A stretch of DNA of 64,000 bases from positions 21,380 to 85,379 of the forward strand of contig JAGTRE010000004.1 in NCBI GenBank assembly GCA_018396415.1. The letters run 5' to 3'. Under the pieces are notes generated by a model. The model was not told where the DNA came from. It saw only the letters and a program-made list of their open reading frames with translations, and ran no database searches. Source of the DNA: Candidatus Bathyarchaeota archaeon (GTDB lineage Archaea > Thermoproteota > Bathyarchaeia > RBG-16-48-13 > JAGTRE01). The first letter of the stretch is position 1. Each line of letters opens with the position of its first letter. The position numbers and the translations under genes were made by a program. Positions 3,845 to 62,167 of this stretch are shown here, piece by piece.

Positions 3845-3870
3845 TTCCAGTAGAATAATAGGGGTGTGGG
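3845..3870 (+). repeat. ORB-like origin recognition box C
   Basis: TTCCAGTAGAATAATAGGGGTGTGGG, a dyad-like core plus GGGGT G-string, about 125 nt upstream of the preferred cdc6 start. Confidence 0.65.
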
Positions 3871-3994
3871 AGGTCAAAGCAATCAATTCCTAGTCGGTTT
3901 TTCTAGTGCTTCTTGTTTGACCTTCTGTATGAGAAGGCTTTTGTTTAGTGGAAGTGGCGCTTTTGCTATTGTAACAATTTTAGAGGGTGAAGCA

Positions 3995-8842: not shown

Positions 8843-9027
8843 TCATAGCACCTGCTTTACTTACGAAATAAAGATTTGACTTTTATCGTTAATAAAAGAT
8901 GGCACGCTAAATAGAAGAGAAGGATGGCATTCTTTTGCTTTAAAACAACTGGTAAATATCTGGTCTTTTAAAAAGAGTATTATTCTTTACTTTACTTACC
9001 AGTCCTATACTCAGCGGAGGTAACCTC

Positions 9028-30408: not shown

Positions 30409-30757
30409 TTATAGCCCTCCGAATGTCTTTCTTGGTTTGAATGCATTATCGAATCATGCTTATTCATTATGAAAATGTTTCGATGGTGAATAAGGGAGTC
30501 AAATATCTGGGATCCTTAAATACCCTCATTTCGATGCTTTAAAACAACCCTAAATCCCCACGTTACATGGAAGTAAAGGCTTTGCTAAAGCGCCTTCTCC
30601 CCTGTATCAAAACAGAGTTTAAGCATTTCTTAACATTAATTCATTCCATCAGATAATGATAAACAATTACGGTGTCATACTCGTGGAAACTGTTTTCTAA
30701 GTGGTGATAGATAATAGATCAGCATACGCCAAGGAATTTTATGATTGTGGTGGGACA

Positions 30758-31264
30758 ATGTCTTCTAAAAGAGGAGTTAAAATTTCTGTCGTAGATATAA
30801 AGAAGCCAGCAGACGTTCAATTTATTTGTGGTCAAGGCAATTTTAGTATCTTCAGTACGGACAACTTATTCCGGACTTTTCAGACGACCCTTCCACCAGG
30901 AGTTAAGTTCGGTATAGCCATGAACGAAGCAGCACCTAGACTAGTACGCGTAACCGCTAATGACATTGAACTGGAGCGGTTAGCTGCGGAAGCTGCTCTC
31001 GCAATTGGGGCTTCTCACGTTTGGGTTGCCATGATGCGCGGAGCTTATCCAATAAATGTTCTAAATGCCTTAAAGCAAAACATAGGCGTATGTACGGTTT
31101 TTGTAGCGACAGCTAATCCCTGCCAAATTATTATTGCAGAGACCAAGCTGGGACGTGCCGTTCTTGGGGCAGTTGATGGAACATCAGTGACTAGAATTGA
31201 AAATGAAAAGGAACGGGAAGAGCGCCGAGCACTAGTTAGAAAACTCGGCTACGTGCTGGGGTAA
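30758..31264 (+). CDS. Adenosine-specific kinase family protein (PF04008-like)
   Basis: The family is recognised from the overall pattern (FICGQGNFSIF..FGIAMNEA..HVWVAMMRGAYPINVLNALK). I prefer ATG at 30758 over the track start at 30701. Confidence 0.5.
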   Translation: MSSKRGVKISVVDIKKPADVQFICGQGNFSIFSTDNLFRTFQTTLPPGVKFGIAMNEAAPRLVRVTANDIELERLAAEAALAIGASHVWVAMMRGAYPINVLNALKQNIGVCTVFVATANPCQIIIAETKLGRAVLGAVDGTSVTRIENEKEREERRALVRKLGYVLG

Positions 31265-32825: not shown

Positions 32826-34856
32826 TTAATTCTTCTGTGCTGGGGCTAACCATGCTTCTTTTACGATTAACTGCATTTTGTTGATCGCTTGGTTAAACGC
32901 GGTTTTTCCAATAACTATGATCTCCTTTCCGAGTAGCTTCTCACTTATCCATTGTAAAGGCGCGCATATATCCCCAGTTTGATTAATGATCTCTTGAGCT
33001 TTTTCAACTGGCATGTTAAGTATCTCTTCCGCTTGTTTCCCGAAGAAAAGGGCATTAATTACTCCTGTGCCATCATTAAGCAAAATTTCAACAATTAAAC
33101 GGGCGGATGGTTCGGCAACCACTCCGCAAGAGTCGCAACGCCAGTTTTCACCCAGTTTTTTAAGTTTCCCTAAACATTTAGGGCACACAAGATGAATGCA
33201 TGGCTTCGGCAGAACTTCGGCGATAGCCGCGTGAACTTCCACGTTCTCACCGTTAACGAGGCTCGTTATCTTTTTTCTTTGAGGAGCAGCCCCTTCAATG
33301 ACAAGTTGGAAACTAGATGCATCGGCTGAAGTTTTTGAGAGAACTTCAATTGTCGTATGCATCCCTGAAGACAATTCTAACTCTTCAGCGAGCCCAGCTT
33401 TCACATAGGCGTTTTTAATTTTGATTTGGTTACCGACAGAAAGTTCTTTTGATAAGGCGGCGAGATGTCTCCACATACTGGCCTTTACTTCGCCAGTTTG
33501 ATCCCTGAGTGTAAAAGACGCAACTAATACGGTCTCTCCTCCCATTGTCACCACTTCCCTAACGACGGGTGGACTAACGATGGTGCCCTCAATAGTCACA
33601 TTGGTCATACCCCGTTTAAGTTGGGCTATTTGCATAGTTTCTTCTGCCTGCGGAAGATTAGCTGCCCGAGCTATCTGGGGATTTAATGTCAATGAACCAA
33701 CTTTACCTAAATTCAGGCTTATTGTGCCAAATCTTTCTTTCGTGTACGCCCCCTCGATAAGCACAATGTCACCGGATTTAATTTTATCAGCTAATCCAGC
33801 GTGGGCATCCCACAATGACAGTTGTATACTACCAGTTTCATCTTTGATGGTTAATGTAGTTACATATCCGATCTCCCCAGATCTTCTTTTAAACTCTCGA
33901 ATTGGTCCAATGTTAAGGACTCTGGCTAGTAAACTCACATCTGTCATGCCAGCTTTTAGGTCGGCAATTTTCAGAAGGTTAATCTGCGGGGGAGCTGGAG
34001 GCAACGTATCTTCGGCTAGGATAGTTATTTGGCTTCTCTTCTCCACATGGATCTCCAGCCTTTCATCGAAACCTTTTGCAATTCGTCCTCCCATGATTTG
34101 GAGGCAATGGCCCTTCCTTATTTCTCTAATTTCTTCAACTTTTTCATTCCAAAACACGGCCTCAATTTTTCCAGTTTCATCGGCGAGTTGTAAACGAATC
34201 ACTTTCCCAACTTGACCATCGGGCTTGCTAAAGGTGGTCGGCGGGAAAATACGCTGAACATAGCCAATTATATTGACATAAATGTCATTTTCGCTAACTT
34301 CAGTTATCTTCTTAAAAAACTCTCTAACATCAGGAAACTTCTCAGGTTTAACATTTGGGGGATCAATAATAATACTTCCACGCGATCCAATGTTAAGTTC
34401 GGGCTTGCCGCTTAATCCATCCCTAACATAACCATGTAAAAGTTGAATAATTTGATTTTGCACGATCTTACCTTGGCACACAAGGTCAGTCTTATTATCC
34501 CATAATACTACGTCTAACATACCGGTACGGTCGGCAATGACCAATCGTGCAACTTTTCCCATGGTTTTATCCTGCCTAGGAAAAAACTGAACTGGGTAAA
34601 CCAAAAGTACACGTCCAGAAATTGATACGTCATTAATTCCCGGCACTAAATCCCGAATTGTAATCTCAGTCTTCAAATCATCTGCTTCTTTAAGGTCAAC
34701 ACCCAATTCCGATGCAACAATATACGCCGCTCCCTCTTCGGTTAATAACCCTCCAACCTCATCCCTCTTCTTTTTAATCATTTGCTTAACCGCATCTAAT
34801 GTCAAATCAGAGCGTTCTTTTAGAATTCGATCCACGATATCCCTATGCTTTAACAA
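32826..34856 (-). CDS. rpa: Replication protein A (single polypeptide; about four OB folds plus a zinc-finger OB)
   Basis: N-terminal LTEEGAAYIVASELGV, repeated OB-like modules (..GRV..V..F....G....V..L.I.DETG.I....W..), and CPKC..x13..CDSCG near the C-terminus. Confidence 0.75.
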   Translation of the reverse strand: MLKHRDIVDRILKERSDLTLDAVKQMIKKKRDEVGGLLTEEGAAYIVASELGVDLKEADDLKTEITIRDLVPGINDVSISGRVLLVYPVQFFPRQDKTMGKVARLVIADRTGMLDVVLWDNKTDLVCQGKIVQNQIIQLLHGYVRDGLSGKPELNIGSRGSIIIDPPNVKPEKFPDVREFFKKITEVSENDIYVNIIGYVQRIFPPTTFSKPDGQVGKVIRLQLADETGKIEAVFWNEKVEEIREIRKGHCLQIMGGRIAKGFDERLEIHVEKRSQITILAEDTLPPAPPQINLLKIADLKAGMTDVSLLARVLNIGPIREFKRRSGEIGYVTTLTIKDETGSIQLSLWDAHAGLADKIKSGDIVLIEGAYTKERFGTISLNLGKVGSLTLNPQIARAANLPQAEETMQIAQLKRGMTNVTIEGTIVSPPVVREVVTMGGETVLVASFTLRDQTGEVKASMWRHLAALSKELSVGNQIKIKNAYVKAGLAEELELSSGMHTTIEVLSKTSADASSFQLVIEGAAPQRKKITSLVNGENVEVHAAIAEVLPKPCIHLVCPKCLGKLKKLGENWRCDSCGVVAEPSARLIVEILLNDGTGVINALFFGKQAEEILNMPVEKAQEIINQTGDICAPLQWISEKLLGKEIIVIGKTAFNQAINKMQLIVKEAWLAPAQKN

Positions 34857-34940: not shown

Positions 34941-37892
34941 TTAGTCCCAAAACATTCGAGTTCTAAGATAATTTCTTTCAGCGGCTAATATATTCATATA
35001 AAATTCTTCTTCCGTTTTGTAGGATTTACGGAGAATTCTAACAGCAGTCGTTGGACCTATTCCTCGACCCGCCATGGCGATTGCTGCCCGCCGTCCATAT
35101 GTTTGGATTAGACTTGCATTTTTCCATGCGGTCTGCCATTTCTTTTCCTCTTCAGTGGTAAGTTTCCTTCCTCGAACTTTCTTCTCAGCAATTTTTGCGA
35201 GCTCTAAATCATTTTCATATGTTGTAGCAATAAGTGTAGAATTACAGCGCGGACATCTAATCCTTTCTGGAAGCGTACGCAGATGGTATATCCCTGTCCA
35301 ATCCCCATTCCAAATACAGACAAGTCTCACCCGCTCAGATGATAATCGTTCTTTGATTACGTCAACGAGTGCCTTTGTTGGTATGACGGGTCTAAGGAGG
35401 TCATGGGGAGCTATCTTATCCAGTATTGGAAGGGCAAGTGGAGAATATTCGGCTTTAAGTTTTATAATTAAAACCTGAATATCTCCAGCTCTAATCAATT
35501 CTATAATTGTTTTAGTCCCTTCGATATCTAACTTCTCTGTCTTGAGTTCCCTCAATGTCTCGTGATAAATAGGTGTGTCCCTTAATGCGTTGACAAGCAT
35601 TCTTGCGCGGCTCATTCGGTAATCCGCCCTGCGTTCAATAACTCCAAATCTCTTAGCGACATGCCAAAGTCTCCAGGCAAACATTGCGGTATCTCCCAGT
35701 ATATTATCCAGTATCATTGTTACGTCATCTGGTGTTAACTCCATCAACTCTCTCCTTACAGCTTCTGGATCAAGATAATGCGGGGCAATGAATGCTATGC
35801 GATAGGGATCGGAGACTGAGGCGATATTTATTCCAAGCCTCGAACTTAGTACAGCACTAAGGACTCGACTGAGCGTTTCATTAACCAAGTTGCCGAAACA
35901 TGCGTGAATTATAACATAATTCTCAAAACACTCAATTACCATCCTGCGATCTGTTGGCACAGGGTAGGAGTATTCGACATGTTTTCTAATGGTTTCGACT
36001 ACCTTTTCGGCAGCATCTCTCTCTAATAGATACCCTTTTAGAACATCAAAAGGGCTTTCGTTTCTAGCGAGTCTTTCAGCAATAACGCCACGTAGTTGAC
36101 CAACGCTTTTCGCAATTTCAAATGGAACAGGGATAATTTCCCCTTCCCAACTGGGAATAGCGCCGAGGCTTTGGGCAACAGGTTCAACATTCAAGGTTCT
36201 TTTCTCTTCGTCAATATTTAGGATGCGCCAGCATTGACCATGCATTATAAATTCGACGCCTGGACGACCATTTTTAGCGATAAACTCTTGATCAAGTATG
36301 CCGATTTTTTGGCGCCGCATGAAATCGAATACGTCGTACTGCTTAACATCTGGGATCATCGACAAGTTTTCATAGTAATACCGGAATGTTCGGGGTAATC
36401 GCTTTTTAATCATATCTTCCTCAAATCTGATAACTCCACTCCTTTCAAGTTGGCTGACCGTTGAGGTTAAATCCTCAATAGTTAGTGCTCGATAGGGATA
36501 TGCGCGAGTGATAACTTGGTAAACCGTGTCTAAACCAACTTTACCGAAATCGAGAGCTAGACCGGCTATTTGATGGGCAAGCGCATCTAAAGCGTTTTCA
36601 TGAATTTGAGGCATCTCTAATAATTCATTCTGAGCGAATTTTGCTATTACACCAGCTTCAAGAATATCATCAGCCCAAGCAGCGAGCACACATCCAGTAG
36701 GTTTAGCGTCAATAGCATGTCCACTTCTGCCGATTCGTTGAACTAACTTTGTTACCTGCCTCGGTGATAAATATTGTACAACAAAGTCAACAGTTCCTAT
36801 ATCAATGCCTAGCTCAAGGGAAGATGTGCAAATAACAGCCTTCAGTTTACCTTCGCGAAAGGCTCTCTCAGTTTCTATTCTGACTTCTCGTGATAAGGAT
36901 CCGTGATGAACTCCAGCCTTAAGACCTGGTTTCAACGCATGAATCCTTGAGGTTAAAGCTTCAGCATGCTCTCGTGTGTTTGTAAATACTAATGTAGACT
37001 TATGGGCGTCTATCAGGTCAAAGAGTCGACGAATTCTTCCAACGCTCCCTGCAGAGATAAGAATTTTATCAGCTATTCTAGAATCTTCAGAAGTCGGTGA
37101 AGGGCTTTCTATACGTACATCTAACTTCTTTGTTGCCTCCGCCTTGACTACGCTGGCTACTCGACTATGTCCCATAAGAAACTTCGCGACCAGCTCAGGA
37201 TTGCCAATAGTTGCTGATAATCCGATTCGTTGAAACTCACGTCCAGTTAATTCTCGAAGACGCTCAAGTCCAATTGAAAGTTGGCATCCCCTTTTATCCG
37301 AAACAACTTCATGGACTTCATCTACGATAACCCAGCGCACTTCCTTAAGATGTATACGCATTTTTTTACCAGGTAGAATCGCTTGCAACGTTTCCGGTGT
37401 TGTTATTAACATATTTGGTGGATGCAGGGCCTGCAGCCTTCGGATTCTTGAGACAGTATCCCCATGTCGGACCTGGACATTTATACCAAGTCGTCCACCG
37501 ATCTCCATTAGCCTTCTAAAGATGTCGCGGTTCAACGCTCGAAGTGGTGTGATATAGAGGATTGAAATCCCGTGTAAGGGTCTTTCAGTTCTCTCCCTGA
37601 GGTAAAGCTCGAAAATTGGAAAGCACGCAGCTTCAGTTTTGCCAGTGCCCGTCGGGGATATAATTAAAACATTTTCTCCATTGAGAATTAGTGGAATCGC
37701 CTTTTTCTGCACATCAGTAGCCGTTTCGAACCCTAATTTTTCAATCTCTTCGCGTAAGGGCTTTGAAAAAAGTGAGAAAATGGATTGATTTGAACCCACA
37801 AATCTTACCTCATTTTCATTATGGCTTCTCGAGGTGGATGGAGCCTGCGCGAATATCTTTTTATGTAAGCTCATTTTCCTCAACTTATGCAA
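34941..37892 (-). CDS. lhr: Lhr-type large DEAD/DEAH-box helicase
   Basis: SPTGTGKT, VIVDEVHEV, LSAT, TSSLELGIDIG, QRIGRSGH. Lhr-like C-terminal extension with CPRC. Confidence 0.85.
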   Translation of the reverse strand: MHKLRKMSLHKKIFAQAPSTSRSHNENEVRFVGSNQSIFSLFSKPLREEIEKLGFETATDVQKKAIPLILNGENVLIISPTGTGKTEAACFPIFELYLRERTERPLHGISILYITPLRALNRDIFRRLMEIGGRLGINVQVRHGDTVSRIRRLQALHPPNMLITTPETLQAILPGKKMRIHLKEVRWVIVDEVHEVVSDKRGCQLSIGLERLRELTGREFQRIGLSATIGNPELVAKFLMGHSRVASVVKAEATKKLDVRIESPSPTSEDSRIADKILISAGSVGRIRRLFDLIDAHKSTLVFTNTREHAEALTSRIHALKPGLKAGVHHGSLSREVRIETERAFREGKLKAVICTSSLELGIDIGTVDFVVQYLSPRQVTKLVQRIGRSGHAIDAKPTGCVLAAWADDILEAGVIAKFAQNELLEMPQIHENALDALAHQIAGLALDFGKVGLDTVYQVITRAYPYRALTIEDLTSTVSQLERSGVIRFEEDMIKKRLPRTFRYYYENLSMIPDVKQYDVFDFMRRQKIGILDQEFIAKNGRPGVEFIMHGQCWRILNIDEEKRTLNVEPVAQSLGAIPSWEGEIIPVPFEIAKSVGQLRGVIAERLARNESPFDVLKGYLLERDAAEKVVETIRKHVEYSYPVPTDRRMVIECFENYVIIHACFGNLVNETLSRVLSAVLSSRLGINIASVSDPYRIAFIAPHYLDPEAVRRELMELTPDDVTMILDNILGDTAMFAWRLWHVAKRFGVIERRADYRMSRARMLVNALRDTPIYHETLRELKTEKLDIEGTKTIIELIRAGDIQVLIIKLKAEYSPLALPILDKIAPHDLLRPVIPTKALVDVIKERLSSERVRLVCIWNGDWTGIYHLRTLPERIRCPRCNSTLIATTYENDLELAKIAEKKVRGRKLTTEEEKKWQTAWKNASLIQTYGRRAAIAMAGRGIGPTTAVRILRKSYKTEEEFYMNILAAERNYLRTRMFWD

Positions 37893-44613: not shown

Positions 44614-44710
44614 ATCGTGAGGATTTAGTAAGTAGTAGCGTACTTTAATTTTTTAAACAAAAATTATAACACTATCAATAGCTATGTGAGTCATCTTTGG
44701 GGATTAGGAT

Positions 44711-47005
44711 TTGTCTCGGCCTGTAAAGAAAGCTAGCTCAAAAGTATTCGATGCGGCTGCTTCACCGCTTCGTATTCAAATGCTTCGGCTTCTTAATATG
44801 CAAGGTCCTTTGGCTTATAGTGAAATTATGGAATTGTTGAACCTTGATCCAGGTCGTGATGCAGGAAAATTCGCTTACCATTTAAGAAGTGTCCTTCAGG
44901 CAAACCTAGTAGATGTTGATAAGGAAACCAAAAAGTATATGCTCACAGATCTCGGGCGTCTGGTCGTAGATTTCTCTCAAAACCTAGAAGAATACGCGAT
45001 GAAAAAAAGTCGCAAATTACTTGTTCGCACTTCTCGCGTTGCCATTGAGGATTTTGACCGAAATAAAATTGTTCAAGCCCTCGTGCGAGAAGCGGGCGTT
45101 CCAACCGAGCTCGCTGAGAAAATTGCGGGAGAAGCTGAAGAACGCCTTCTTCGTTTACAGACGAAGTATTTGACTGCACCCTTAATCCGAGAGTTTGTTA
45201 ACTCAATCCTCATCGAAAAAGGACTGGAAGAATATAGACACAAGCTTACACGCTTGGGACTTCCGGTTTACGACGTGACTCAACGTATTCGCGAAGCCAA
45301 AGAAGCTCTCCTCAATGTTGAGGCTATCCATAAAATGGCCGGAAACCGTGTCATGGAAGAATATATGCTTCTTAATATACTTCCTAGAGACGTCGCTGAC
45401 GCACACCTCTCTGGGGCACTACATCTATGTAATACCGGTTGTTGGATCATTAAGCCAAACGAAATACAACATGATCTCAGGGTTTTTTTCAATGAAGGTT
45501 TTCGTGCGGAGAGACTCGGTTTATTATCCGTAACATCTAATCCTCCGAGGTCCTTTGAAGAGGTCTTATTCCTTACGTTGAATGTGTTAAAGTCATCAAG
45601 TATTGAGGCAGCAGGTGAACAAGCACTTGATTACTTCAATGTTTTTATCGCGCCTTTCGTTAGAGGTATGCCTCCGGAGAGAATCAAGGAGCTTTTGAGG
45701 CTTTTTATTTTTAGTTTAGGTCAATCTTCATCCAATGGCTGTTTAGTTGAATCCACGTTAGGCTTCGAACTCTCCATTCCAGATCATCTCAAAAAGGTGG
45801 AAGCCATAGGTCCAGGAGGTAAATCGGCGGGCTACTATGGAGATTATGAAGATGAAGTACGTAAAATCTTCGAGGCAGTAATGGATATAATGTTTGAAGA
45901 CAGTGCTCATAAACCCATTTTTAACCCTCACATAGTTGTAAAGATTAGGCAGGACACCCTTAAAGATCCGTTATTATTAAAAGCACATAAACTTGCAGCA
46001 ACTTGTGGCATTCCATACTTCGCAAACTTATCCCAACAATGGCAATCTTACGCGAACTACACCGCATCCGGAACTCGTTTAGCATCCGAATGGACGCAGG
46101 ATTGGGAACTTGATACAATCAGAACAGGTAACCTAGATTGTGTATTAATCAACTTGCCTCGGATTGCTTACGAGGCGCAAGGAAACGATGAAAAATTCTC
46201 TGAGATACTAGAAAACCACATTAAAATGGCAAGTTTAGCGCTTGAAATCAAACACCAAATAATCGAAGAACACATGCAACATGGACTTTTGCCCTTCCTT
46301 ACGCAACAAACGGCTGGTGAATCTTATTTCCGCCTTGAAAATGCCACTCATCTCATCAGTTGTGTTGGCTTAAATGAAGCAATCAAAATACACACAGGTC
46401 ACCAAATCTTCGAAAGCGATGATTCGCTGTCTTTTGCCATTAAACTCTTCGAGGATATTACTGCCCGTGTAAAGCAGCAATCGCGAAAGCCTAGGTTTCG
46501 CTTCAGTTTATCGCAAACCTCTGATGAGCAGGCTGCACAGAGATTAGCTGAGCTCGATGTAGAAAAATATGGCTGGGCTAATGTGAGCGTGCAGGGAACT
46601 AAAGATGCTCCATATTACACGGATCTGACATTTTTACCATTAGAAGCCGATTTATCTTTAAATGATCGGTTGCAAATCGAAGGCAAATTTCACATGCTTA
46701 CTCATGGCGGTCACCTAGCGGTGATCATCTTAAAAGAACCTGAGCAAAGACCAGAGGATTTGTTAGTTAACACTGAGCGAGTATGTCAAACCTCCGGAGT
46801 AGGATTTTTTACATACACGCGGGATTTGACTTATTGTATGCATTGTCAACGGTTATTTGGAGGCATTTTGCAGAAATGTCCTCGTTGTAAATCATCAAAT
46901 ACGCTTACACACTATAGTCGTTCTTCAGCAAAATATCTTCCATTGCGCTGGTGGGCTCCCGCGAAGCGGGCAAATATAGCTCGACGCATATCTTATGGTT
47001 TATAA
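44711..47005 (+). CDS. ArsR-type wHTH + ATP-cone + catalytically inactive class III ribonucleotide reductase (NrdD-like) paralog
   Basis: It aligns by eye along its whole length with the downstream NrdD (shared AIGPGGK, NLP..AYEA, FTYTRDLT.C..C...CP.C). It lacks the radical Gly (SRSSAKY vs SRITGYY), the finger-loop Cys (SGTRLAS vs QCCRYYM) and the N-terminal Cys (KPNEIQHD vs RPFCQSHD). The N-terminal 95 aa are ArsR-like (PLRIQMLRLLNMQGPLAYSEIMELL..FAYHLRSVLQANLV). Confidence 0.75.
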   Translation: MSRPVKKASSKVFDAAASPLRIQMLRLLNMQGPLAYSEIMELLNLDPGRDAGKFAYHLRSVLQANLVDVDKETKKYMLTDLGRLVVDFSQNLEEYAMKKSRKLLVRTSRVAIEDFDRNKIVQALVREAGVPTELAEKIAGEAEERLLRLQTKYLTAPLIREFVNSILIEKGLEEYRHKLTRLGLPVYDVTQRIREAKEALLNVEAIHKMAGNRVMEEYMLLNILPRDVADAHLSGALHLCNTGCWIIKPNEIQHDLRVFFNEGFRAERLGLLSVTSNPPRSFEEVLFLTLNVLKSSSIEAAGEQALDYFNVFIAPFVRGMPPERIKELLRLFIFSLGQSSSNGCLVESTLGFELSIPDHLKKVEAIGPGGKSAGYYGDYEDEVRKIFEAVMDIMFEDSAHKPIFNPHIVVKIRQDTLKDPLLLKAHKLAATCGIPYFANLSQQWQSYANYTASGTRLASEWTQDWELDTIRTGNLDCVLINLPRIAYEAQGNDEKFSEILENHIKMASLALEIKHQIIEEHMQHGLLPFLTQQTAGESYFRLENATHLISCVGLNEAIKIHTGHQIFESDDSLSFAIKLFEDITARVKQQSRKPRFRFSLSQTSDEQAAQRLAELDVEKYGWANVSVQGTKDAPYYTDLTFLPLEADLSLNDRLQIEGKFHMLTHGGHLAVIILKEPEQRPEDLLVNTERVCQTSGVGFFTYTRDLTYCMHCQRLFGGILQKCPRCKSSNTLTHYSRSSAKYLPLRWWAPAKRANIARRISYGL

Positions 47006-47258
47006 ATTGTTCTTGTCCCCTTAAATTGCTCAACATTATATTTTATATGGCTTGCCTCCTAAATTTTTAATTAACTAAACACAAATTTTGTCGCGTCTTC
47101 ACAGTTTTATAAATCGAAGCTTTATTTTGTCGAATTTTTTGATTGAATTTGTACAAAATCTTAAAGTGTAGGTTCGATTACTTGTTTGCTCCTTGCTGGA
47201 AGGTAGCATAAATGCTCTTAAAGCAAATATTCTGGTTGCCTAGCACGCCGTTCAATAA

Positions 47259-49472
47259 ATGGGGAGTATTAGTTATATGAGAAGAATTGATGCATTAGTT
47301 GTTCGGAAGAGTAAAGGAACAGTAGAACCATTTGATAGGCAGAAAATCGTTGAAAGTTTAGTTGACGAAGCGAATGTAGACCGCCGTATAGCGATGGAAA
47401 TAGCTAGTGAAGTTGAGATAGAGATACGTCACATGGACTTGGAGTTTATCAGTGCGCCTCTCATTCGAGAAATTGTAAACGCTAAACTTCTTGAATACGG
47501 GCTGGAAGATGCTCGAAAAGTTTACACCAGAGTAGGATTGCCCGTAGCCGACGTTGAAAGGATGATCGCAGGCGTGCACTGGTACTCCAAGGAGAATGCC
47601 AATTTGCAACGTAATCCAGAAACCATCCATAAACTTCTTGCCGACTCCGTAATTCGTGAGCATACGTTACTAAAAATTCTTCCGATAAAACTGAGTGACA
47701 TGCACATGAAAGGTGCAATTCATATTCATGAGCTGGAATACTTCCCCACTAGACCATTTTGCCAATCACATGATGCTCGCTTCTTCTTTAAACACGGTTT
47801 CGTCGCTGATGGAACAGGGACTCACACCGCGGTAGCAGGTCCAGCCAAAAAAGCTGAGGTGGCACTGCTTCACGCTTTAAAAGTCTTACAGGCAAGTCAG
47901 GTGAACTGCGGTGGTGGACAGGGATTACATAATTTCACTGTTTTTATGGCTCCATATCTAAGAGGTTTGGACTATAGTACTTTGAAGCAGCTTGCTCAGA
48001 CGATGTTCTTTGAGTTGGGTGAAATGTATGTTGCACGTGGTGGGCAAACCGTGTTTTCAAGTGTATCATTAGAACCAGGTATCCCTAAAGCCTACCAAGA
48101 TATACCAGCCATAGGACCTGGTGGCAAGGAAGTTGGCGTTTACAGCGATTACGCCGATGAAACCACTCGTTTCTTTGATGCAATTGTCGAAGTTGCCCTC
48201 GACGGCGACTACATGGGAAAACCATTTAATTGGCCTAAATTAGAAATTAGGCTGACGCGCGATTGGTTCCAGGCCTATAACAAAGAATTTCTCCTATCTT
48301 CTCAATTAGCTGCTAAGTTCGGCAGTCCATATTACTTCAACGCTGGGGCTCCCTACATGCCGGGAGAAATGATATGTACCCAATGTTGCCGGTACTACAT
48401 GCAGCATGCGGATTGGAATGATGAACACGATCTACTTAACGGTACTCTTCGTGGGGGAGTTATCCAGAATATTACAGTAAATCTTCCGCAATGCGCCTAC
48501 GAGGCCGACGGTGATGACGATCGACTTTTTGAGGAGATCGATCGTAGAATGGCAGCATCCCGTGATGTATTACTAATTAAGATTAATGAAATGAAAAAGC
48601 GGCTTGCTGAAGGATTTCTTCCATTTCTTTCGCAACCGGTTGATGATAATCCCTATAAAATTAAATGGTATGATTACGAATACATTGATGATGACGAAGG
48701 ACAACTGCAAGTTAAGTCAAGCCATGAGGCACATCTTGCCGGTACACCCTATCTCGTACCTGAACGGCAAGGAGCTACCATCGGCGTTTTAGGTCTAAAT
48801 GAGATGCTTAAGGCGCATATCGGTAGTGAACTTCATGAGAGTCGCGATGCATGGAAATTCGGATTAAAAGTTATCAATCGGATGCGGCGAACTGTTGATG
48901 AGTATACCAAGGCAACTGGAGTGTACTTTGGCCTAGTTCAGTCCCCCGCTGAATCATGTGCTCATAGGCTTGCACTTATTGACTTAAGGACCTATGGAAG
49001 ATCAAAAGTAGTTGTACAAGGCAACCCTGATAACGGAGAGCAAGGAGTTCCAGCTGTTTATTACACTAACTCGACTCACGTTAGAGTTTCAGCTCCCATT
49101 GCACTATGGGAAAGAATTAGAATTGAAGCTAGTTTTCACCCGCTCTTCAATGGAGGAACTATTCTGCATGTTTTCCTTGGTGAAGCCTATCCAGACCCTG
49201 AAGCGGTGTGGAAACTTACAGAGTGTATCGCGACAAAGACACTGACCGGCTACTTTACCTATACCCGTGATCTCACTATTTGTAAGCGTTGTAAAACGGT
49301 ACACAGTGGTTTGCAACGCCTGTGTCCAAACTGTAATGCCGGAGGCGCTGATCTCGAACACTGGAGTCGAATAACTGGTTATTACCAAGAAGTTAGTGGG
49401 TGGAATGCCGGCAAGAAAGCTGAACTTATGGATCGTTACCGACATGACATCAAGGTGAAATTATTTGATTAA
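47259..49472 (+). CDS. nrdD: Anaerobic (class III) ribonucleoside-triphosphate reductase NrdD with an N-terminal ATP-cone
   Basis: ATP-cone VVRKSKGTVEPFDRQKIV, Cys-containing finger loop ICTQCCRYY, zinc ribbon CKRC..CPNC, and glycyl-radical motif SRITGYY near the C-terminus. Confidence 0.85.
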   Translation: MGSISYMRRIDALVVRKSKGTVEPFDRQKIVESLVDEANVDRRIAMEIASEVEIEIRHMDLEFISAPLIREIVNAKLLEYGLEDARKVYTRVGLPVADVERMIAGVHWYSKENANLQRNPETIHKLLADSVIREHTLLKILPIKLSDMHMKGAIHIHELEYFPTRPFCQSHDARFFFKHGFVADGTGTHTAVAGPAKKAEVALLHALKVLQASQVNCGGGQGLHNFTVFMAPYLRGLDYSTLKQLAQTMFFELGEMYVARGGQTVFSSVSLEPGIPKAYQDIPAIGPGGKEVGVYSDYADETTRFFDAIVEVALDGDYMGKPFNWPKLEIRLTRDWFQAYNKEFLLSSQLAAKFGSPYYFNAGAPYMPGEMICTQCCRYYMQHADWNDEHDLLNGTLRGGVIQNITVNLPQCAYEADGDDDRLFEEIDRRMAASRDVLLIKINEMKKRLAEGFLPFLSQPVDDNPYKIKWYDYEYIDDDEGQLQVKSSHEAHLAGTPYLVPERQGATIGVLGLNEMLKAHIGSELHESRDAWKFGLKVINRMRRTVDEYTKATGVYFGLVQSPAESCAHRLALIDLRTYGRSKVVVQGNPDNGEQGVPAVYYTNSTHVRVSAPIALWERIRIEASFHPLFNGGTILHVFLGEAYPDPEAVWKLTECIATKTLTGYFTYTRDLTICKRCKTVHSGLQRLCPNCNAGGADLEHWSRITGYYQEVSGWNAGKKAELMDRYRHDIKVKLFD

Positions 49473-49740
49473 ATTGCTTCTTTTTATCTCTCCTACTTGT
49501 CCTCACTGTCCAGCAGCGAAAGATGTTGCTGAAAAATTGAAGAAAATTCGAGATGATGTTGAGGTCGAAGTCTTAGACATTTCTAACCAAGAGAACTTTA
49601 CAACCGCATTAATGCTTCAGGTGGCGTCGACACCAACTTTCGTACTTGGAGAGACCCCCATTTTTGTTGGATGTGTGCCTTCTCTTGAAGAGTTAGATAC
49701 AAAAATCAGAGAATACGCCGGAAGAATCGGTGTGAAGTAG
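49465..49740 (+). CDS. Small thioredoxin/glutaredoxin-fold protein (CPHC active site), NrdH-like by context
   Basis: LLFISPTCPHCPAAK; 91 aa. The TTG start overlaps the nrdD stop by 8 nt. Confidence 0.65.
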   Translation: MIKLLLFISPTCPHCPAAKDVAEKLKKIRDDVEVEVLDISNQENFTTALMLQVASTPTFVLGETPIFVGCVPSLEELDTKIREYAGRIGVK

Positions 49741-49774: not shown

Positions 49775-50716
<942 letters not shown>

Positions 50717-51073
50717 TCATTCAAATGATGGAAGGCTTTGTCATTAAATAACTCTTGCTTAATACCTAGCAAACGCGAGTTTTTCGGAGATTGTTATCCA
50801 GATTAAATTATTAAAAGAACTTCAACCATTCCCAGTTGATATGCGCTCTAAGTTGATAATTACTTATACGAGTTCACATCCCTGATTAATGAAGGTGGAA
50901 CATTGTACTCGCCCTATAACTATTTTATTAGCCGAAATGTTGGATCCGTTGGATCTTCTACCGCACATCCCTTTATTCGTCATTAAAACAGCTTTCATAA
51001 GTGAAGCCCCAAAATATCTCTGCCTAAACACTTTCATAGAAAAAGATCTTAATATCAAGCCAGGGTTAAACCT

Positions 51074-51544
51074 ATGCCCAGTGAGGAAGAAGAACTCCGT
51101 GTAAAGAAAATTCGAGAAGGAACAGTAATCGACCACATAACGTCAGGACATGCGTTAACAGTTCTCAGAATTCTGGGGATCTTCGGCCGAGAAGGGGGAG
51201 TTGTAAGCGCTGCCATGAACGTTCCAAGTAAAAAAATCAAGCGCAAGGATATAGTAAAAATTGAAGGCCGTGAACTTCGTCCGGAGGAGGTAGACAAAAT
51301 TGCTTTAATTGCTCCACGGGCAACAATCAACATCATCCGTGATTATAAGGTAATTCGCAAGGAGAAGGTAAATCTTCCCAAGGTTATCCGTGGAATTGTT
51401 CGATGCGCCAACCCGACATGTATTTCGAACAGTCGCGAACCAGTTCAATCTACCTTCATTGTTGAATGTGAAGACCCACTTCGTCTGAGATGTCACTACT
51501 GTAGTCGCATAATGGAGAAAGATGACATTCTTAAACAGCTTTAA
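51074..51544 (+). CDS. pyrI: Aspartate carbamoyltransferase regulatory subunit
   Basis: [15 protein letters not shown], and a C-terminal zinc domain [12 protein letters not shown]. Confidence 0.85.
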
Positions 51545-51626
51545 TATTATTCATTGAAGAAAATACTTTTACGTAATCTTCTATTGTTCAATTATCGATA
51601 GTTTCGTGGAAACGAGGGTGCAGTGA

Positions 51627-51953
51627 ATGTCTGAGGAAGTGTTTGAGAGCATTCTTGAAGCTGAACGAAGAGCTGAAGAAATCCTAAGTAATGCTCAAAA
51701 AGAGGCTACGCGAATTGAACGGGAAGCTGAGTTAAAATCTCGCGAAGTTTATGAGGAAATGTATAAGAAGATTATCGACGAAGCTCGACGTTCCGCCTCT
51801 AAGATAATTGAGCAGGCAAAAAGTGAAACTGAAAAAGAAGTGCAGCGGATGTTACGGGATATGGAAGATGAGATTAAAAATTTACGTGCAATCGCTGAAA
51901 AAAACATGGGCAACGTCGTTAAGTTGTGTTTCCAGTTTTTAACAAAGTTCTAG
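51627..51953 (+). CDS. atpH: A/V-type ATP synthase subunit H (peripheral stalk, coiled coil)
   Basis: 108-aa charged coiled coil at the head of the ATPase operon. Confidence 0.6.
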   Translation: MSEEVFESILEAERRAEEILSNAQKEATRIEREAELKSREVYEEMYKKIIDEARRSASKIIEQAKSETEKEVQRMLRDMEDEIKNLRAIAEKNMGNVVKLCFQFLTKF

Positions 51954-51957
51954 TTAG

Positions 51958-52596
51958 GTGGTTCACGTGGAGAAGAACACACTACTACTGGACAAGATAA
52001 TCAAAGACGCCGAGGAAGAAGCAGCGAACATTATAAAACGATCCCAGCAAGCAGCTGAGGAGTTGTTAAAAAAACAGGAAACTGAAGCAAAGCAAAAAGC
52101 TGAAGCAGAGGCTGCTAGAATTCTTGAATCTGCACGAGAAGAAGCTGCTCGAATTAGACGCAGTATGATTGCTGATGCTAAGATTAGAGTTAATTGGAAT
52201 CTCTTAAAGGAGAAAGAAAAACTGATCGATCAAACACTTGATCAAGTGATGAAGGAGTTAATGCAATTTACTAAATCCTCAGCCTATAACGAATTTCTTG
52301 AAAAAATTTCTTTAGCTTCGGCGAAAGTTATGAATGGGGGAGAGATTGAATTAATTCTAAACGAGCGGGATGCAAATCTTCAAATCGATATCTCAAAGAT
52401 TTCGGAGAGGGTATCTGCTGAAACTGGCATAAAGACGGTAATTAAATTGTCATCTGAAAGGCATAGAGGTTGCGGGGGTATCATTATGAAAACAACTGAT
52501 GGTAGAATCACTATCGATAACACACTTGATAGCATTTTTGCACGTCATGCAAATGCTCTCCGTCTTAAAATTGCTAATGAATTATTCGCGAAGTAG
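51958..52596 (+). CDS. atpE: A/V-type ATP synthase subunit E
   Basis: 212 aa: an N-terminal long helix (EEAANIIKRSQQAAEELLKKQE..) and a C-terminal globular domain. Position in the operon supports the call. Confidence 0.7.
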   Translation: MVHVEKNTLLLDKIIKDAEEEAANIIKRSQQAAEELLKKQETEAKQKAEAEAARILESAREEAARIRRSMIADAKIRVNWNLLKEKEKLIDQTLDQVMKELMQFTKSSAYNEFLEKISLASAKVMNGGEIELILNERDANLQIDISKISERVSAETGIKTVIKLSSERHRGCGGIIMKTTDGRITIDNTLDSIFARHANALRLKIANELFAK

Positions 52597-52612
52597 TTAG
52601 GGAGTCTCATAG

Positions 52613-52936
52613 ATGGCAAGGATTGCGGTCATCGCAGATAGGGATACAGCCGTATACTTCCGACTAGCAGGAATAAAAGACAGTTATTCGGTTAAAGATT
52701 CGCAAGAAGCTGAAAGAAAGCTGATTGAGATCTCTCAGAATACTGAAATCGCAGTTATTATTATAGCTGAGCGTCTAGCCGAAGAAATTCAGCATGTAAT
52801 TACTAAAATTAGTGAAAAACGACTTTATCCGCTTATAATCTCAGTCCCCGATAAACACGGGCCAATCCCTAGAAAAATCGATCCAATAGCTGAACTTATT
52901 AAGCGCACGGTTGGTGTGGAAATAAAGGTGGAATGA
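52613..52936 (+). CDS. atpF: A/V-type ATP synthase subunit F
   Basis: [21 protein letters not shown]; 107 aa. Confidence 0.75.
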
Positions 52937-52940
52937 TCCA

Positions 52941-54710
52941 TTGAGAATAGGTGAAATTATTCGAATTGCTGGCCCTGTAGTTACGGCCCGCAATATGACT
53001 GGTTCACAAATGTATGAACTTGTCAAAGTCGGGGATGTCGGTTTAATTGGCGAAATTATCCGGATCGAAGGTGACCGGGCAACAATCCAAGTCTATGAGG
53101 AGACTACGGGAATTAAACCCGGTGAAAGGGTTGAAGGAACTGGGAAGCCCCTTTCGGTTGAACTAGGCCCGGGATTGATTGGACAAACTTATGATGGTAT
53201 TCAACGGCCGCTTCCGGCTTTACAAGAGCTCGTAGGATACTTTGTGCGAAGAGGCGTTTCAGCTCCAGCACTCAATAGATCGAAAAAGTGGGTATTTAAG
53301 CCAACGGTTTCCCTTAATGAAAAAGTTGCAGGCGGCTCCATTCTTGGAACAGTTCAGGAGACGCCTCAGGTCACGCAGCGTATTCTTGTTCCCCCACGTG
53401 TTTCAGGTAAGGTGAAACACATAGCCAAAGAAGGCGAATACACCGTAGTTGACGAGATTGCTGAAATAGAGACTAGTTATGGCATCGAAAAGTTATCGCT
53501 TATGCACAGTTGGCCTGTCCGCCAAGCTAGACCCTATATACGTAAAATTCCTCCCGACACACCACTACTTACAGGGCAGAGAATTATCGATACATTCTTC
53601 CCTATTGCAAAGGGTGGAACCGCTGCTATTCCAGGCGGTTTTGGTACGGGAAAGACAGTTATGCAACATCAACTTGCACAATGGGCAGATGCAGACATAA
53701 TTATATACGTCGGTTGCGGGGAGCGAGGAAATGAAATGGCAGAAGTTTTGGAAAGGTTCCCGAAGCTTAAGGATCCGCGCTCCGGTCAGCCATTAATGAC
53801 TCGAACGATTCTTGTCGCCAATACATCAAATATGCCAATCGCCGCCCGGGAGGCAAGCATTTACACCGGGATAACTTTGGGAGAATACTTTCGCGATATG
53901 GGCTACGATGTGGCCCTCATGGCTGATTCCACCAGTCGATGGGCAGAAGCTCTTCGTGAAATATCCGGTCGATTAGAAGAAATGCCCGGGGAGGAAGGTT
54001 ACCCCGCCTATCTTGCATCTCGTTTAGCAGACTTTTATGAACGTGCTGGACGTGTGGAAACTTTAGGAGGGCGTATCGGATCGGTATCGATTGTCGGAGC
54101 AGTTTCACCACCTGGTGCTGACTTTTCTGAACCCGTTACCCAAAATACCCTTCGTGTCATTAAGGTCTTCTGGGCACTTGACACAAGTCTCGCACAGCGT
54201 CGGCATTTCCCCTCGATTAATTGGCTGAACAGCTACTCACTATACCTAGATACCATGGAGGACTGGTTTAGTAAAAATGTAAATCCTGAATGGTCTAAGC
54301 TGCGAAGCGAGGCGATGTATATCTTGCAGAGAGAAGAAGAACTACGTGAGATCGTTCAACTAGTTGGTCCTGACGCCCTCTCTGAAAGTCAACGTGTATT
54401 TCTGGAGGTTGCTAGAATGATTCGTGAGGACTACCTTATGCAAAGTGCCTACCACTCAATAGATTCCTACTGTCCCATCGAGAAGGCTTATTACATGTTA
54501 TCAATAATCCTCAAATTTTACCATCGAATGCGCAGCCTCGTTGAACGCGGCATCCCCCTTGCCAAGATTCTTGCTCTTCCAGTTAGGGAAAAGATAGCTC
54601 GAATGAAAATTCAGCCTATCAAAGGCTTTGAAAAGACAGCCGAGGAAATCGGGAGAGAAATAGATCAGGCATGTAGTAAGTTAATGGAAGAAGCCTTGGG
54701 AGGCACCTGA
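52941..54710 (+). CDS. atpA: A/V-type ATP synthase catalytic subunit A
   Basis: [11 protein letters not shown]-loop, and [21 protein letters not shown]. 589 aa, so no intein. Confidence 0.92.
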
Positions 54711-54712
54711 CA

Positions 54713-56131
54713 GTGGCATCGATTTTAGCCAGTCGTCGTTACTCGACGGTCCGTGAAATTACTGGGCCTCTCCTTTTTGTCGAGGCTATTTCAGGAGTTG
54801 GTTTCGGAGAACTTGTTGAAATTGAGACACCGAGCGGTGAAAGGCGCCGCGGGCAAGTTTTAGAAGTTGGAGAAGGTATTGCCGTTATTCAAGTCTTTGA
54901 AGGTACACGTGGACTTGCAACCACAGAAACTGTAGTCCGATTTACTGGTGAAACCATTAAGCTTCCAGTCACCACAGGTTTACTTGGTCGAATTTTAGAT
55001 GGAAGCGGTCAAGTTATCGACGGTGGGCCACCTATAATTCCTGAGGATTACTGGGATATTCATGGAGCTCCAATGAACCCATATAGCCGTGCACATCCAA
55101 GCGAATTCATCCAAACCGGGATAAGCGTAATTGACGGAATGAACACTCTTGTCCGCGGGCAGAAACTTCCACTATTTTCGGGCAGCGGGTTACCTCACAA
55201 TCAAATTGCCGCCCAAATCACAAGACAAGCTACAGTGCCAGGCAAAGAGGAAGCTTTTGCCATAATCTTTGCCGCTATGGGGATCACGGCCGATGAAGCA
55301 CGCTTTTTTAAGGATGATTTTACCAAACAAGGTGCTTTAGATCGGGTTGTCATGTTCGTTAACCTTGCAGAGGACCCTGCCATCGAACGTCTCATAACCC
55401 CACGGCTTGCTCTCACCGCTGCTGAATACCTAGCTTATACGCAAGATTATCATGTGCTCGTTATCCTTACTGATATGACAAATTATGCTGAGGCTCTTCG
55501 TGAAATTTCTGCAGCAAGAGAAGAAGTTCCGGGTAGGCGAGGTTATCCTGGTTATCTTTACACAGACCTCGCTACCATATACGAACGGGCAGGCCGTATT
55601 CATGGGAAGAAGGGGTCTATAACACAACTGCCAATTCTAACCATGCCTCACGATGACATCACGCATCCTATCCCTGATCTGTCAGGCTATATCACCGAGG
55701 GTCAGCTCATTGTGGATCGGGGTTTGTACCGGAAGGGAATTTATCCCCCGATTGACCCATTGCCGTCATTAAGTCGGCTTATGAACGAGGGAATTGGGGA
55801 GGGCAACACACGTGCAGATCATCGTGAAGTTTCTGATTGCCTTTACTATGCGTTTTCAGAGGGAAAGAGTCTGCGAGATCTTGTAGCTGTAATTGGAGAA
55901 GAGGCACTAACGGACCGTGATAAGCTCTATTTAAAGTTTGCAGATGATTTTGAGCGGCGCTTCATTAACCAAGGATTATACGAAAATCGATCGATAGAGG
56001 AAACATTAGATTTGGGCTGGGAGCTTTTGTCCGTTTTCCCGGAAACTGAATTGAAGCGGGCGGATCCTGCAACAATTAAGAAATTTCTGCCAAAATATCG
56101 GGGGGCTGTGATCGGTTCAAGTAAGTTATAA
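54713..56131 (+). CDS. atpB: A/V-type ATP synthase subunit B
   Basis: [19 protein letters not shown] and [21 protein letters not shown]. Confidence 0.92.
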
Positions 56132-56177
56132 ATTAAATGACAATAAACTTCCTTCAGTTATTCATGTGTGATCGAGA

Positions 56178-56852
56178 ATGGCTTCAAGGGTTATCAGTGG
56201 TGTTCGTCCAACTCGTATGGAATTATTAATGCTGAAGAAGCGGAGGATGTTAGCGCAACGGGGGCATGACCTTCTCCAAGAGAAACGCGATGCACTTGTA
56301 ATGGAATTTTTCGGCTTTATTCACGAAATCGCCCCGCTCCGAGCTAAGGCGTATAAAGCGCTCATCGAAGGATATGCAGCTTGTGTCGATGCTCAAATGA
56401 TGATAGGCTCTAGAAAACTTGAGGAGATTTCCTTAAGCATCCCAGATCGCTACAACCTAGATGTCAAGATGAGGAATGTCATCGGAGTTACAATTCCTCT
56501 GTTTAAACTTGTTGAAAAGGGGGAGTTAAAAGGTACCATTCAATATAATTTATTAGAAACTTCCTCAAGACTTGATGAAGCTGTTGAGAAGCTCCGCGTG
56601 GCGCTTGAAGCTGTAATAAGGTTAGCTGAAGTAGAGGCCGCTATACGGAGGCTCGCTGAAGCTATAATTGTTACAAAAAGGAGAGTTAACGCCCTAAAAT
56701 ATAGAATTATACCGCTGCTAACCAGCACCGTGAATTATATTGAGATGCAACTTGAAGAGCGCGAGCGTGAGGACTTCTTTAGGTTAAAGCGAATCAAAAC
56801 CCTACATGAAGTTAAAGCAGGCAAGAGCAAGATTTTTCAGGAATTCGTTTGA
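56178..56852 (+). CDS. atpD: A/V-type ATP synthase subunit D
   Basis: VRPTRMELLMLKKRRMLAQRGHDLLQEKRDAL. Confidence 0.85.
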   Translation: MASRVISGVRPTRMELLMLKKRRMLAQRGHDLLQEKRDALVMEFFGFIHEIAPLRAKAYKALIEGYAACVDAQMMIGSRKLEEISLSIPDRYNLDVKMRNVIGVTIPLFKLVEKGELKGTIQYNLLETSSRLDEAVEKLRVALEAVIRLAEVEAAIRRLAEAIIVTKRRVNALKYRIIPLLTSTVNYIEMQLEEREREDFFRLKRIKTLHEVKAGKSKIFQEFV

Positions 56853-62078: not shown

Positions 62079-62167
62079 TGGGCCGGGTGGGAGTTGAACC
62101 CACGACCACCACCTCTCCTAGTTGAGCACGTAAGGGTGGCATCCAAACCAAGCTAGACGACCGGCCC
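62079..62167 (-). tRNA. tRNA-Val (anticodon TAC) with a roughly 14-nt intron at or next to 37/38; no encoded CCA
   Basis: Manual fold: acceptor GGGCCGG/CCGGCCC, anticodon stem CCACC/GGTGG, loop CTTACG[intron]A, variable loop TGGTC, T-arm GTGGG-TTCAACT-CCCAC, A73. Confidence 0.85.

Follow-up and report, generated by a model that had tools for sequence, protein, structure and literature searches.

A stretch of 64,000 nucleotides from Candidatus Bathyarchaeota archaeon (assembly GCA_018396415.1, contig JAGTRE010000004.1, positions 21,380 to 85,379 of the forward strand; hereafter the window) carries, at 44711..47005, an open reading frame (ORF) whose product is an ArsR/SmtB-type winged helix-turn-helix (wHTH) joined to an ATP-cone and a full NrdD fold, the fold of class III ribonucleotide reductases (RNRs). 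This protein has neither the glycyl radical site nor the two catalytic cysteines, and the motifs that bind the substrate are lost. Sequence comparisons across its family suggest that it is probably a nucleotide-sensing transcription factor for RNR genes, and so an archaeal functional analogue of NrdR, a reading that we hold with some reserve. The canonical nrdD gene that follows it (47259..49472) is its presumed target. To our knowledge, the control of RNR expression in archaea is largely unknown. NrdR is rare in archaea (PMC9110341), which leaves the role of RNR regulator open there, and the wHTH family offers a concrete candidate for it in the Bathyarchaeia, which are abundant sediment archaea, and in their relatives. 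No description of the wHTH, cone and pseudo-NrdD architecture was found in the open-access literature, papers on RNR evolution included.

Domain architecture and catalytic positions

The gene, its domains and the canonical gene downstream are as follows.
44711..47005, + strand: wHTH, ATP-cone and pseudo-NrdD gene (764 residues, TTG start; from the ORF list and Pfam/NCBIfam), hereafter the wHTH gene
44732..45010, + strand: ArsR/SmtB-type winged helix-turn-helix (residues 8-100; Pfam, AlphaFold2 and Foldseek)
45020..45238, + strand: ATP-cone (residues 104-176), with the altered roof V105 R106 T107 S108 R109 and a last helix with Y175 R176...R181
45239..45334, + strand: linker in place of the NxN/ENAN flap (residues 177-208; low-confidence model)
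45335..46810, + strand: NrdD-like ten-stranded alpha/beta barrel (residues 209-700), catalytic and substrate residues gone
46811..47002, + strand: Zn ribbon (C709, C712, C723, C726) and vestigial glycyl-radical loop (R737-S-S-A740-K741)
47259..49472, + strand: canonical class III RNR gene nrdD (737 residues; ATP-cone and NrdD domains, C168, C376-C377, Zn ribbon, G707)

Three Pfam domains were recognized in the wHTH protein: a DUF7347 wHTH at residues 10-87 (32.9 bits, gathering cutoff 27.6), an ATP-cone (PF03477) at residues 105-175 (27.3 bits, gathering cutoff 25.8) and NRDD at residues 202-762 (E = 1.2e-92). Weaker matches of the first domain to HTH_5 (ArsR), HTH_20 and NF033788 remained below their cutoffs (16.0, 18.7 and 25 bits for cutoffs of 22, 27 and 55, respectively). 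DUF7347, an uncharacterized wHTH model of archaea of which no mention was found in open-access full text, scored 30-45 bits in divergent family members. The downstream protein is an ATP-cone and NrdD protein by Pfam (E = 1e-142). As a preliminary description made from the sequence alone had stated, the upstream copy exists as a single ORF and can be aligned end to end with the downstream copy (32% identity, E = 3e-126).

The predicted structure was in agreement with these domains. A full-length AlphaFold2 model built on 81 family sequences reached a mean predicted local distance difference test score (pLDDT) of 84 and a predicted template modelling score (pTM) of 0.74, with pLDDT of ~90-96 over the wHTH and below 50 at residues 177-198 and 203-208. 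In Foldseek, the full model matched the NrdDs of S. thermophilus, P. copri, T. maritima and T4 with template modelling (TM) scores of 0.73-0.78, and other glycyl radical enzymes and class I RNRs came far below. A separate model of residues 1-134, with pLDDT of at least 90 over residues 11-90, had as its best matches the ArsR/SmtB repressors SmtB, CzrA, CadC and HlyU (TM 0.70-0.76, the alpha5 helix included). The ArsR-like N-terminal domain proposed in the preliminary description, its winged helix and its fusion to a cone and an NrdD paralog were therefore borne out by Pfam, AlphaFold2 and Foldseek alike. The helices of this domain span residues 8-15, 19-31, 36-42 and 47/51-63, the last containing the recognition helix GKFAYHLRSVL, and are followed by a wing beta-hairpin (67-78) and an alpha5-like helix (80-100). 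While the first 100 residues thus share the alpha1-alpha5 winged-helix fold of the ArsR/SmtB proteins, they score below the cutoffs of that family, with DUF7347 as the best model, and have no evident metal-site cysteines; apart from H57, no ArsR-type metal-site cluster of Cys and His was seen in the wHTH alignment. The effector module differs as well, being an ATP-cone and a pseudo-RNR instead of an intrinsic metal site.

Catalytic positions were read from an alignment in which the downstream NrdD had been anchored on solved NrdD structures. By this procedure, C377 of the downstream protein corresponds to the thiyl radical cysteine of T4 NrdD (C290) and C376 to T4 G289, and the aligned residues of the wHTH protein are G454-T455. 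C168, in the region of T4 C79, is aligned with E251, and R704-I-T-G707-Y708 with R737-S-S-A740-K741. G707 itself is aligned with the glycine of RIVGY in T. maritima, with Gly711 of P. copri and with an alanine in the deposited T4 crystal sequence, which we take to be the G580A mutant. The three radical-chemistry substitutions that had been noticed by eye (E251, T455 and A740) were thereby confirmed, as was the retention of the zinc ribbon (C709/C712/C723/C726), whose four cysteines are invariant in the close family.

The losses extend beyond those first noticed: the ENAN/NxN flap, HxHD and PAE are gone as well. Of the three substrate-binding elements described in P. copri NrdD, the NxN flap closes over the substrate, HxHD holds its triphosphate, and the third is the main-chain loop 577-581 (PMC11226230). 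The canonical N113-A-N115 of the flap is absent in the family, with the low-confidence linker in its place; the HxHD position reads H238-L-C240-N241 in the wHTH protein (family consensus 'Hinn'), and the PAE position reads S604-D605-E606. The specificity-site residues (P. copri E290, N298 and loop 2) could not be mapped, phmmer and the family profile both leaving this stretch unaligned.

These positions were also read across the family. In the close-family alignment, the radical-glycine column holds Ala in 83 sequences, Ser in 12, Thr in 6 and Gly in 3, with 16 gaps, and the family profile reads 'Rvsak' at the position of P. copri Gly711. The column of the thiyl cysteine in close relatives contains Cys (73), Phe (16), Thr (15), Ser (6) and others, so that the finger-loop cysteine is kept in ~60%; the family finger loop reads G-C-R, compared with C-C-R in the neighbouring NrdD. 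A motif-anchored census of this position in divergent members proved unreliable (40 of 112 unassigned), and the close-family alignment was used instead. The bottom cysteine was missing in every family member examined. Finally, 38 canonical archaeal NrdDs share 59 columns with a conservation of 90% or more, and of these only 23 persist in 80% or more of the 112 family members.

Could the wHTH protein still be an enzyme, of RNR or glycyl-radical type, with a non-canonical radical site or with activation in trans? Its score on the NCBIfam NrdD equivalog TIGR02487 lies just above the cutoff (334.7 against 326.35 bits), a few divergent members retain an R..G motif, and some members keep the finger-loop cysteine. 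We find an enzymatic role barely credible, however, given an alanine at the radical glycine (the same change as in the T4 G580A crystal mutant), the absence of the bottom cysteine, the loss of the NxN flap, HxHD and PAE, the small set of canonical positions kept (23/59) and the existence of members that end right after the Zn ribbon. In addition, a Pfam scan of the 30 window ORFs with 150 residues or more revealed no gene for NrdG, the radical S-adenosylmethionine (SAM) activase. Compared with the NrdDs of T4, T. maritima, P. copri and S. thermophilus, the wHTH protein retains the fold and the order of ATP-cone, barrel and Zn ribbon, and differs in the radical Gly, the thiyl and bottom Cys and the substrate motifs, all lost, in the extra N-terminal wHTH and in belonging to a separate clade.

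Spread, conservation and genomic neighbourhood of the family

A protein search yielded more than 120 clusters, at 50-92% identity, in which the three Pfam domains recur, and those with a name come from Bathyarchaeia metagenome-assembled genomes (MAGs) in which they are annotated as 'anaerobic ribonucleoside-triphosphate reductase'. The TIGR02487 score of the wHTH protein, just above the cutoff, explains why such proteins receive this name. When 50%-identity representatives were searched, wHTH-bearing relatives reached down to ~30% identity; here the presence of the wHTH coincided with a missing bottom Cys and a missing RxxGY, and proteins without the wHTH were canonical. Four canonical proteins with N-terminal extensions carry a second ATP-cone and no wHTH. 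Many canonical archaeal NrdD relatives (P0155, P0158, P0163, P0189, P0192, P0199 and others) are 1100-1700 residues long with split matches, as is typical of intein-containing NrdDs.

For a genome scan with one genome per species, a closer N-terminal alignment served as the query and loci were confirmed by tblastn; a divergent N-terminal alignment of 30 sequences was too variable for this use and was replaced. The scan yielded 456 confirmed loci, the best 80 of which are all from Bathyarchaeia. Divergent members were found in Ca. Culexarchaeum, Odinarchaeia, Methanomethylicota and one Nitrososphaerales-labelled MAG, and one member from Ca. Culexarchaeum is already annotated as 'ArsR family transcriptional regulator'. 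The preliminary description had left room for an artefact of a single assembly. The architecture is instead common to Bathyarchaeia, Culexarchaeia/Methanomethylicota and Odinarchaeia, and a frameshift or assembly fusion of two genes is ruled out by the recurrence of the fusion (>120 clusters, 456 loci) in hundreds of independent assemblies.

In a neighbour-joining tree of wHTH and canonical NrdD proteins over 649 columns, the wHTH proteins (112/112) formed one clade on a long stem, with no canonical sequence inside. Identity was 0.41 within each group and 0.28 between the family and the canonical proteins. The wHTH family is an old, widespread, monophyletic clade, and since its members stand apart on their own long stem at this low identity, the gene in the window is not a recent tandem duplicate of the adjoining nrdD.

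Conservation within the family is unevenly distributed. Among close members, the columns that are invariant or nearly so are densest in the recognition helix (A51 G52 F54 Y56 H57 L58), in the cone and at G183-L-P185; the cone columns are V105 R106 T107 S108 R109, then F115 D116 R117 K119 I120, then Y153 L154 T155 A156 P157 L158 I159 R160 E161, and finally Y175 R176 and R181. In 15 very divergent members, little is conserved besides the wHTH, the cone, the linker and the cysteines of the ribbon; the barrel keeps D230/H232/G235 and NLPR and is unconserved elsewhere. The tail after the ribbon is variable, many members end directly after the Zn ribbon, and deletions in the members linked to nrdJ (described below) have removed the finger loop and the AIGPGGK region as well. 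The wHTH and the ATP-cone are the best-conserved parts of the protein; the barrel and the glycyl-radical tail decay.

This conservation bears on the ATP-cone, whose signature the preliminary description had called degraded. In P. copri NrdD, the cone contacts its nucleotides through Lys7, Arg8, Tyr83, Arg87 and Arg91 (PMC11226230). The canonical roof, V-x-K-R-D-G, reads V105-R106-T107-S108-R109 in the wHTH protein, T107-S108 taking the place of the K-R pair between R106 and R109, both conserved, and Y175, R176 and R181 are invariant in the family. With the cone among the most conserved parts of the family, it is altered, not degraded.

A transcription factor could also respond to a signal other than nucleotides, such as redox state or a metal sensed through the Zn ribbon or a retained cysteine, and its cone and barrel would then be relics. 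ArsR/SmtB relatives do sense metal or redox, the K-R pair of the roof is replaced, the ribbon cysteines are invariant, the finger-loop cysteine persists in the fraction of close relatives given above, and the partner NrdD appears to use a thiol redoxin. We nevertheless regard such a signal as unlikely: the cone is highly conserved, also at those aromatic and basic positions of its last helix through which other cones contact their nucleotides, the wHTH shows no metal-site cysteines of the ArsR type, and the ATP-cone is otherwise essentially restricted to RNRs and NrdR (PMC11226230).

The genes that follow nrdD in the window are as follows.
49465..49740, + strand: thioredoxin/glutaredoxin-like CPHC protein (91 residues), its start overlapping the nrdD stop
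49775..50713, - strand: pyrB, a neighbour of the family gene conserved across lineages
51074..51544, + strand: pyrI, likewise a neighbour conserved across lineages

The stop of the wHTH gene and the start of nrdD are separated by 253 bp; iorA/iorB-like genes lie upstream of the wHTH gene, and the pyr genes are followed by an A-type ATPase operon. The CPHC redoxin is likely the reductant of the downstream NrdD. Because this NrdD carries three cysteines, C168 and C376-C377, and the stop of its gene overlaps the gene of the CPHC protein, the sequence suggests a thiol redoxin, not formate, as its reductant.

Neighbourhoods were counted in the 55 loci of the genome scan with at least 3 kb of downstream sequence. 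A canonical nrdD lies directly downstream, on the same strand, in 27/55, and in the other 28/55 there is no NrdD within the locus (6-8 kb), pyrB often following the family gene directly. In L001-L006, the family gene is followed by a small redoxin and a canonical nrdD, in either order, and then by pyrB(-)/pyrI; an equivalent (grx/trx) of the redoxin gene of the window is present in L001, L003 and L005. The family gene of L137 (Culexarchaeia) is followed by pyrB/pyrI/ATPase without NrdD, and that of L138 (Methanomethylicota) adjoins no RNR gene. In two divergent loci, L139 and L140, a protein of 738 residues with Ribonuc_red_lgN/lgC and TSCPD domains is encoded ~185 bp downstream on the same strand; these two proteins score 1174 and 1186 bits on the equivalog of B12-dependent RNRs (NF006417, cutoff 961), which identifies the neighbour as a class II RNR (nrdJ).

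The same two loci have a cobalamin transport/biosynthesis cluster upstream of the family gene. It comprises a CbiA-like amidase, an aminotransferase and a BtuCDF-like ATP-binding cassette (ABC) transporter, transcribed divergently from the wHTH gene (L139 1-5825, L140 1-5433), as well as a radical SAM protein in L140. The intergenic region shared by the cluster and the wHTH gene could allow their co-regulation. The order of family gene, RNR gene if present, pyrB(-), pyrI and A-type ATPase operon extends from Bathyarchaeia to Culexarchaeia (L137, L003, L139, L140 and 49775..56852 of the window), whichever class the RNR gene belongs to and also in its absence.

The family gene is thus linked to true RNR genes of two classes, III and II. 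A role as RNR subunit cannot explain such a linkage, and the pattern is that known for NrdR. This bears on the other role proposed in the preliminary description, a silent regulatory subunit that would form a heterodimer with the downstream NrdD and tune its activity or specificity, the wHTH being secondary. The two proteins do share the NrdD fold and both have ATP-cones, NrdDs are dimers with half-site behaviour (PMC11226230), and the genes lie in tandem on the same strand in 27/55 loci. A heterodimer is nonetheless quite improbable, as NrdD is missing nearby from the remaining 28 loci and from L137 and L138, and the neighbour in L139/L140 is a class II NrdJ. Moreover, the barrel is the least conserved part and is truncated or deleted in many members, identity to canonical proteins is only ~28%, and the strictly conserved ArsR-type wHTH would be left unexplained. 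The role of NrdR-like regulator, on the other hand, is supported by this comparative genomics, by the conserved wHTH and cone and by the promoter boxes described below.

The annotation of the family has practical consequences. Hundreds of database entries named 'anaerobic ribonucleoside-triphosphate reductase' are not reductases, and counts of class III RNR genes in metabolic reconstructions, such as those made to infer anaerobic DNA synthesis, come out too high. In genomes such as those of L139/L140, the only real RNR nearby is the B12-dependent one.

Promoter elements and proposed role

Two candidate elements were recognized in the window. BRE stands below for the transcription factor B recognition element.
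44643..44666, + strand: promoter box CTTTAATTTTTTAAAC of the wHTH gene, ~53 bp before the start codon; candidate BRE/TATA and/or operator
47124..47166, + strand: candidate operator/promoter element in the 253-bp nrdD leader, an imperfect inverted repeat ATTTTGTCGAATTT / AATTTGTACAAAAT followed by TCTTAAAG

The first box overlaps a perfect 8-nt inverted repeat, TAATTTTT-N5-AAAAATTA, inside which lies the only copy in the window of the 12-mer AATTTTTTAAAC (44647-44658). Across 140 loci, this 12-mer is matched exactly at 27 sites: 24 lie 40-60 bp before the start of a family gene, two belong to the nrdD promoters of L033 and L049, and the last falls within an nrdD gene. Of 73 non-redundant regions upstream of family genes, 45% contain the shorter TTTAAAC, at 40-65 nt from the start codon; the share in 672 background regions is 4%.

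A second element, of ~44 bp (nnnaTACAGAATTTTATACAanttntTCTAAAAattTnAAn), is conserved between the family gene and grx/nrdD, in spacers that are otherwise unalignable. A position weight matrix (PWM) built from 14 instances matched ~30/85 loci, always between the family gene and grx/nrdD and nowhere else in ~1 Mb; the consensus at this grx/nrdD-proximal position is ATACARAATTTTATACA..TCTAAAAA. Scanning metagenomes for the exact pattern gave 53 instances: ~41 have the stop of a family gene 18-125 bp upstream and nrdD 110-800 bp downstream, and ~11 have no NrdD-like gene nearby. The element is duplicated in L116, and because the second copy sits ~55 bp before the start codon of grx, the element covers the core promoter. 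In that locus (4471-6405) the copies are 1.9 kb apart, with an opposite-strand gene of 309 residues and a membrane ORF of 68 residues between them. L039 also carries the element, and runs of N mask the sequence directly after it.

In the leader of the window, TGTACAAAATCTTAAAG is located at 47150-47166 and its inverted partner at 47124-47137, and TGTACAAAAT-N-TTAAAG is common to this leader and the nrdD upstream regions of L033 and L049. The assignment of 47124..47166 as a diverged version of the grx/nrdD-proximal element is made only by this identity and by position, and is accordingly provisional. The pattern TGTACAAAATNTTAAAG, allowing up to 3 mismatches, was not enriched in the window (3 matches, 1.7 expected), no k-mer was consistently shared, within a locus, by the family promoter and the nrdD leader, and no Rfam family was found in the 253-nt leader. 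Between L139 and L140, the spacers in front of nrdJ have other blocks in common. Weak matches to the element (21-26 bits) were also seen 3' of the family gene in loci without nrdD, namely L054 and, similarly, L027, L030 and L044; in L054 (10530..10787) the weak element precedes an ORF of 85 residues, Cys-rich and Zn-ribbon-like, which itself stands before pyrB.

The conserved promoter elements are gene-specific and far better conserved than would be expected of a generic BRE/TATA. This fits operators that overlap promoters, and the family protein may bind them. The elements also bear on a possible DNA-associated role outside transcription, for example tethering or the sensing of deoxynucleoside triphosphate (dNTP) supply at the replication machinery or an origin. 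The combination of a DNA-binding domain with an RNR-like, nucleotide-binding body would suit such a role, and the window is rich in genes for Orc1/Cdc6, PolD DP1/DP2 and RPA-like proteins. It seems improbable all the same: 10-40 kb separate these genes from the wHTH gene, whose conserved neighbourhood consists of RNR, pyrBI and ATPase genes, the ArsR-type wHTH is classically found in site-specific regulators, and gene-specific promoter boxes indicate action at the level of the promoter.

As an NrdR-like regulator, the wHTH protein would use its NrdD-like body as a dimer scaffold, and its two winged helices would occupy an operator that overlaps the core promoter of the RNR operon downstream, and probably the promoter of the family gene itself. 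As in NrdR and P. copri NrdD, ATP or dATP bound in the cone would alter how the protein oligomerizes or where its DNA-binding domains stand, and RNR transcription would then track the dNTP/ATP status of the cell.

Several points weigh against this proposal. The binding of DNA and of nucleotides is predicted only, and with Lys-Arg changed to Thr-Ser in the cone roof, that of ATP/dATP is uncertain. The boxes could be an unusually conserved BRE, TATA or promoter-proximal element (PPE) to which the protein does not bind; they differ between clades, and even with a threshold of 14 bits the window gave no match to the 44-bp PWM. With an RNR gene lacking near about half of the loci, the set of targets is uncertain, and a barrel of 560 residues exceeds what a dimerization scaffold needs.

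A broader version of the proposal, which we consider rather doubtful, is that the whole allosteric apparatus of an RNR has been reused as the sensor of a transcription factor. The cone would read ATP/dATP, the balance of dNTPs would be sensed by a specificity site that persists in the pseudo-barrel, and the wHTHs would set the promoter occupancy of RNR genes of any class and perhaps of pyrBI. Such a protein would have evolved independently of NrdR and would be, in Bathyarchaeia and the related TACK/Asgard archaea, the master regulator of the supply of DNA precursors.

With NrdR, the wHTH protein has in common a DNA-binding domain joined to an ATP-cone and a genomic tie to RNR operons of different classes, and nucleotide-dependent control of RNR transcription is the likely common logic. 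Homology is limited to the cone, however, and the cone roof of the wHTH protein is without the K-R pair. Its DNA-binding domain is an ArsR-type wHTH, in contrast to the N-terminal Zn ribbon of NrdR; its own Zn ribbon is C-terminal and part of the NrdD fold; and with a complete pseudo-NrdD it is, at 764 residues, five times the size of NrdR. Nor were palindromic boxes of the NrdR type found; the promoter elements conserved in the family have other sequences. A precedent in principle is NrtR, an enzyme-like (Nudix-like) sensor fused to a wHTH that has been misannotated as an enzyme (PMC2330246). In both, a metabolic enzyme fold with lost or reduced catalysis is combined with a wHTH and regulates, or in our case would regulate, the pathway of origin, but the folds are unrelated, the domain order is reversed (the wHTH is N-terminal here), and the regulatory function of the wHTH protein is a proposed one. 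If the proposal is true, an essential radical enzyme has been turned into a pseudoenzyme sensor, and the family provides the first ATP-cone protein outside RNRs and NrdR.

Other genes of the window

Genes for replication proteins are concentrated in the window: Orc1/Cdc6 (3866..5248), endonuclease dU (5211..5810), PolD DP1 (5773..7344, - strand), PolD DP2 (21081..24506), a multi-OB RPA-like protein (32826..34856, - strand) and an Lhr-type helicase (34941..37892, - strand). With this concentration, a replication origin may lie near the window.

Genes of nucleoside-salvage type occur in 7982..9879, 12040..12750 and 30701..31264, and encode two divergently oriented PNP_UDP_1 phosphorylases, an HD-domain protein and an adenosine-specific kinase. 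Two tRNA matches on the minus strand, at 11725-11823 and 62079-62167, are above the standard length of a tRNA (99 and 89 nt) and probably contain introns. Finally, two genes for small regulators adjoin each other, one for an HTH_3 protein with a CBS pair (1093..1665) and the other for a TrmB/MarR-like protein (1708..2439).

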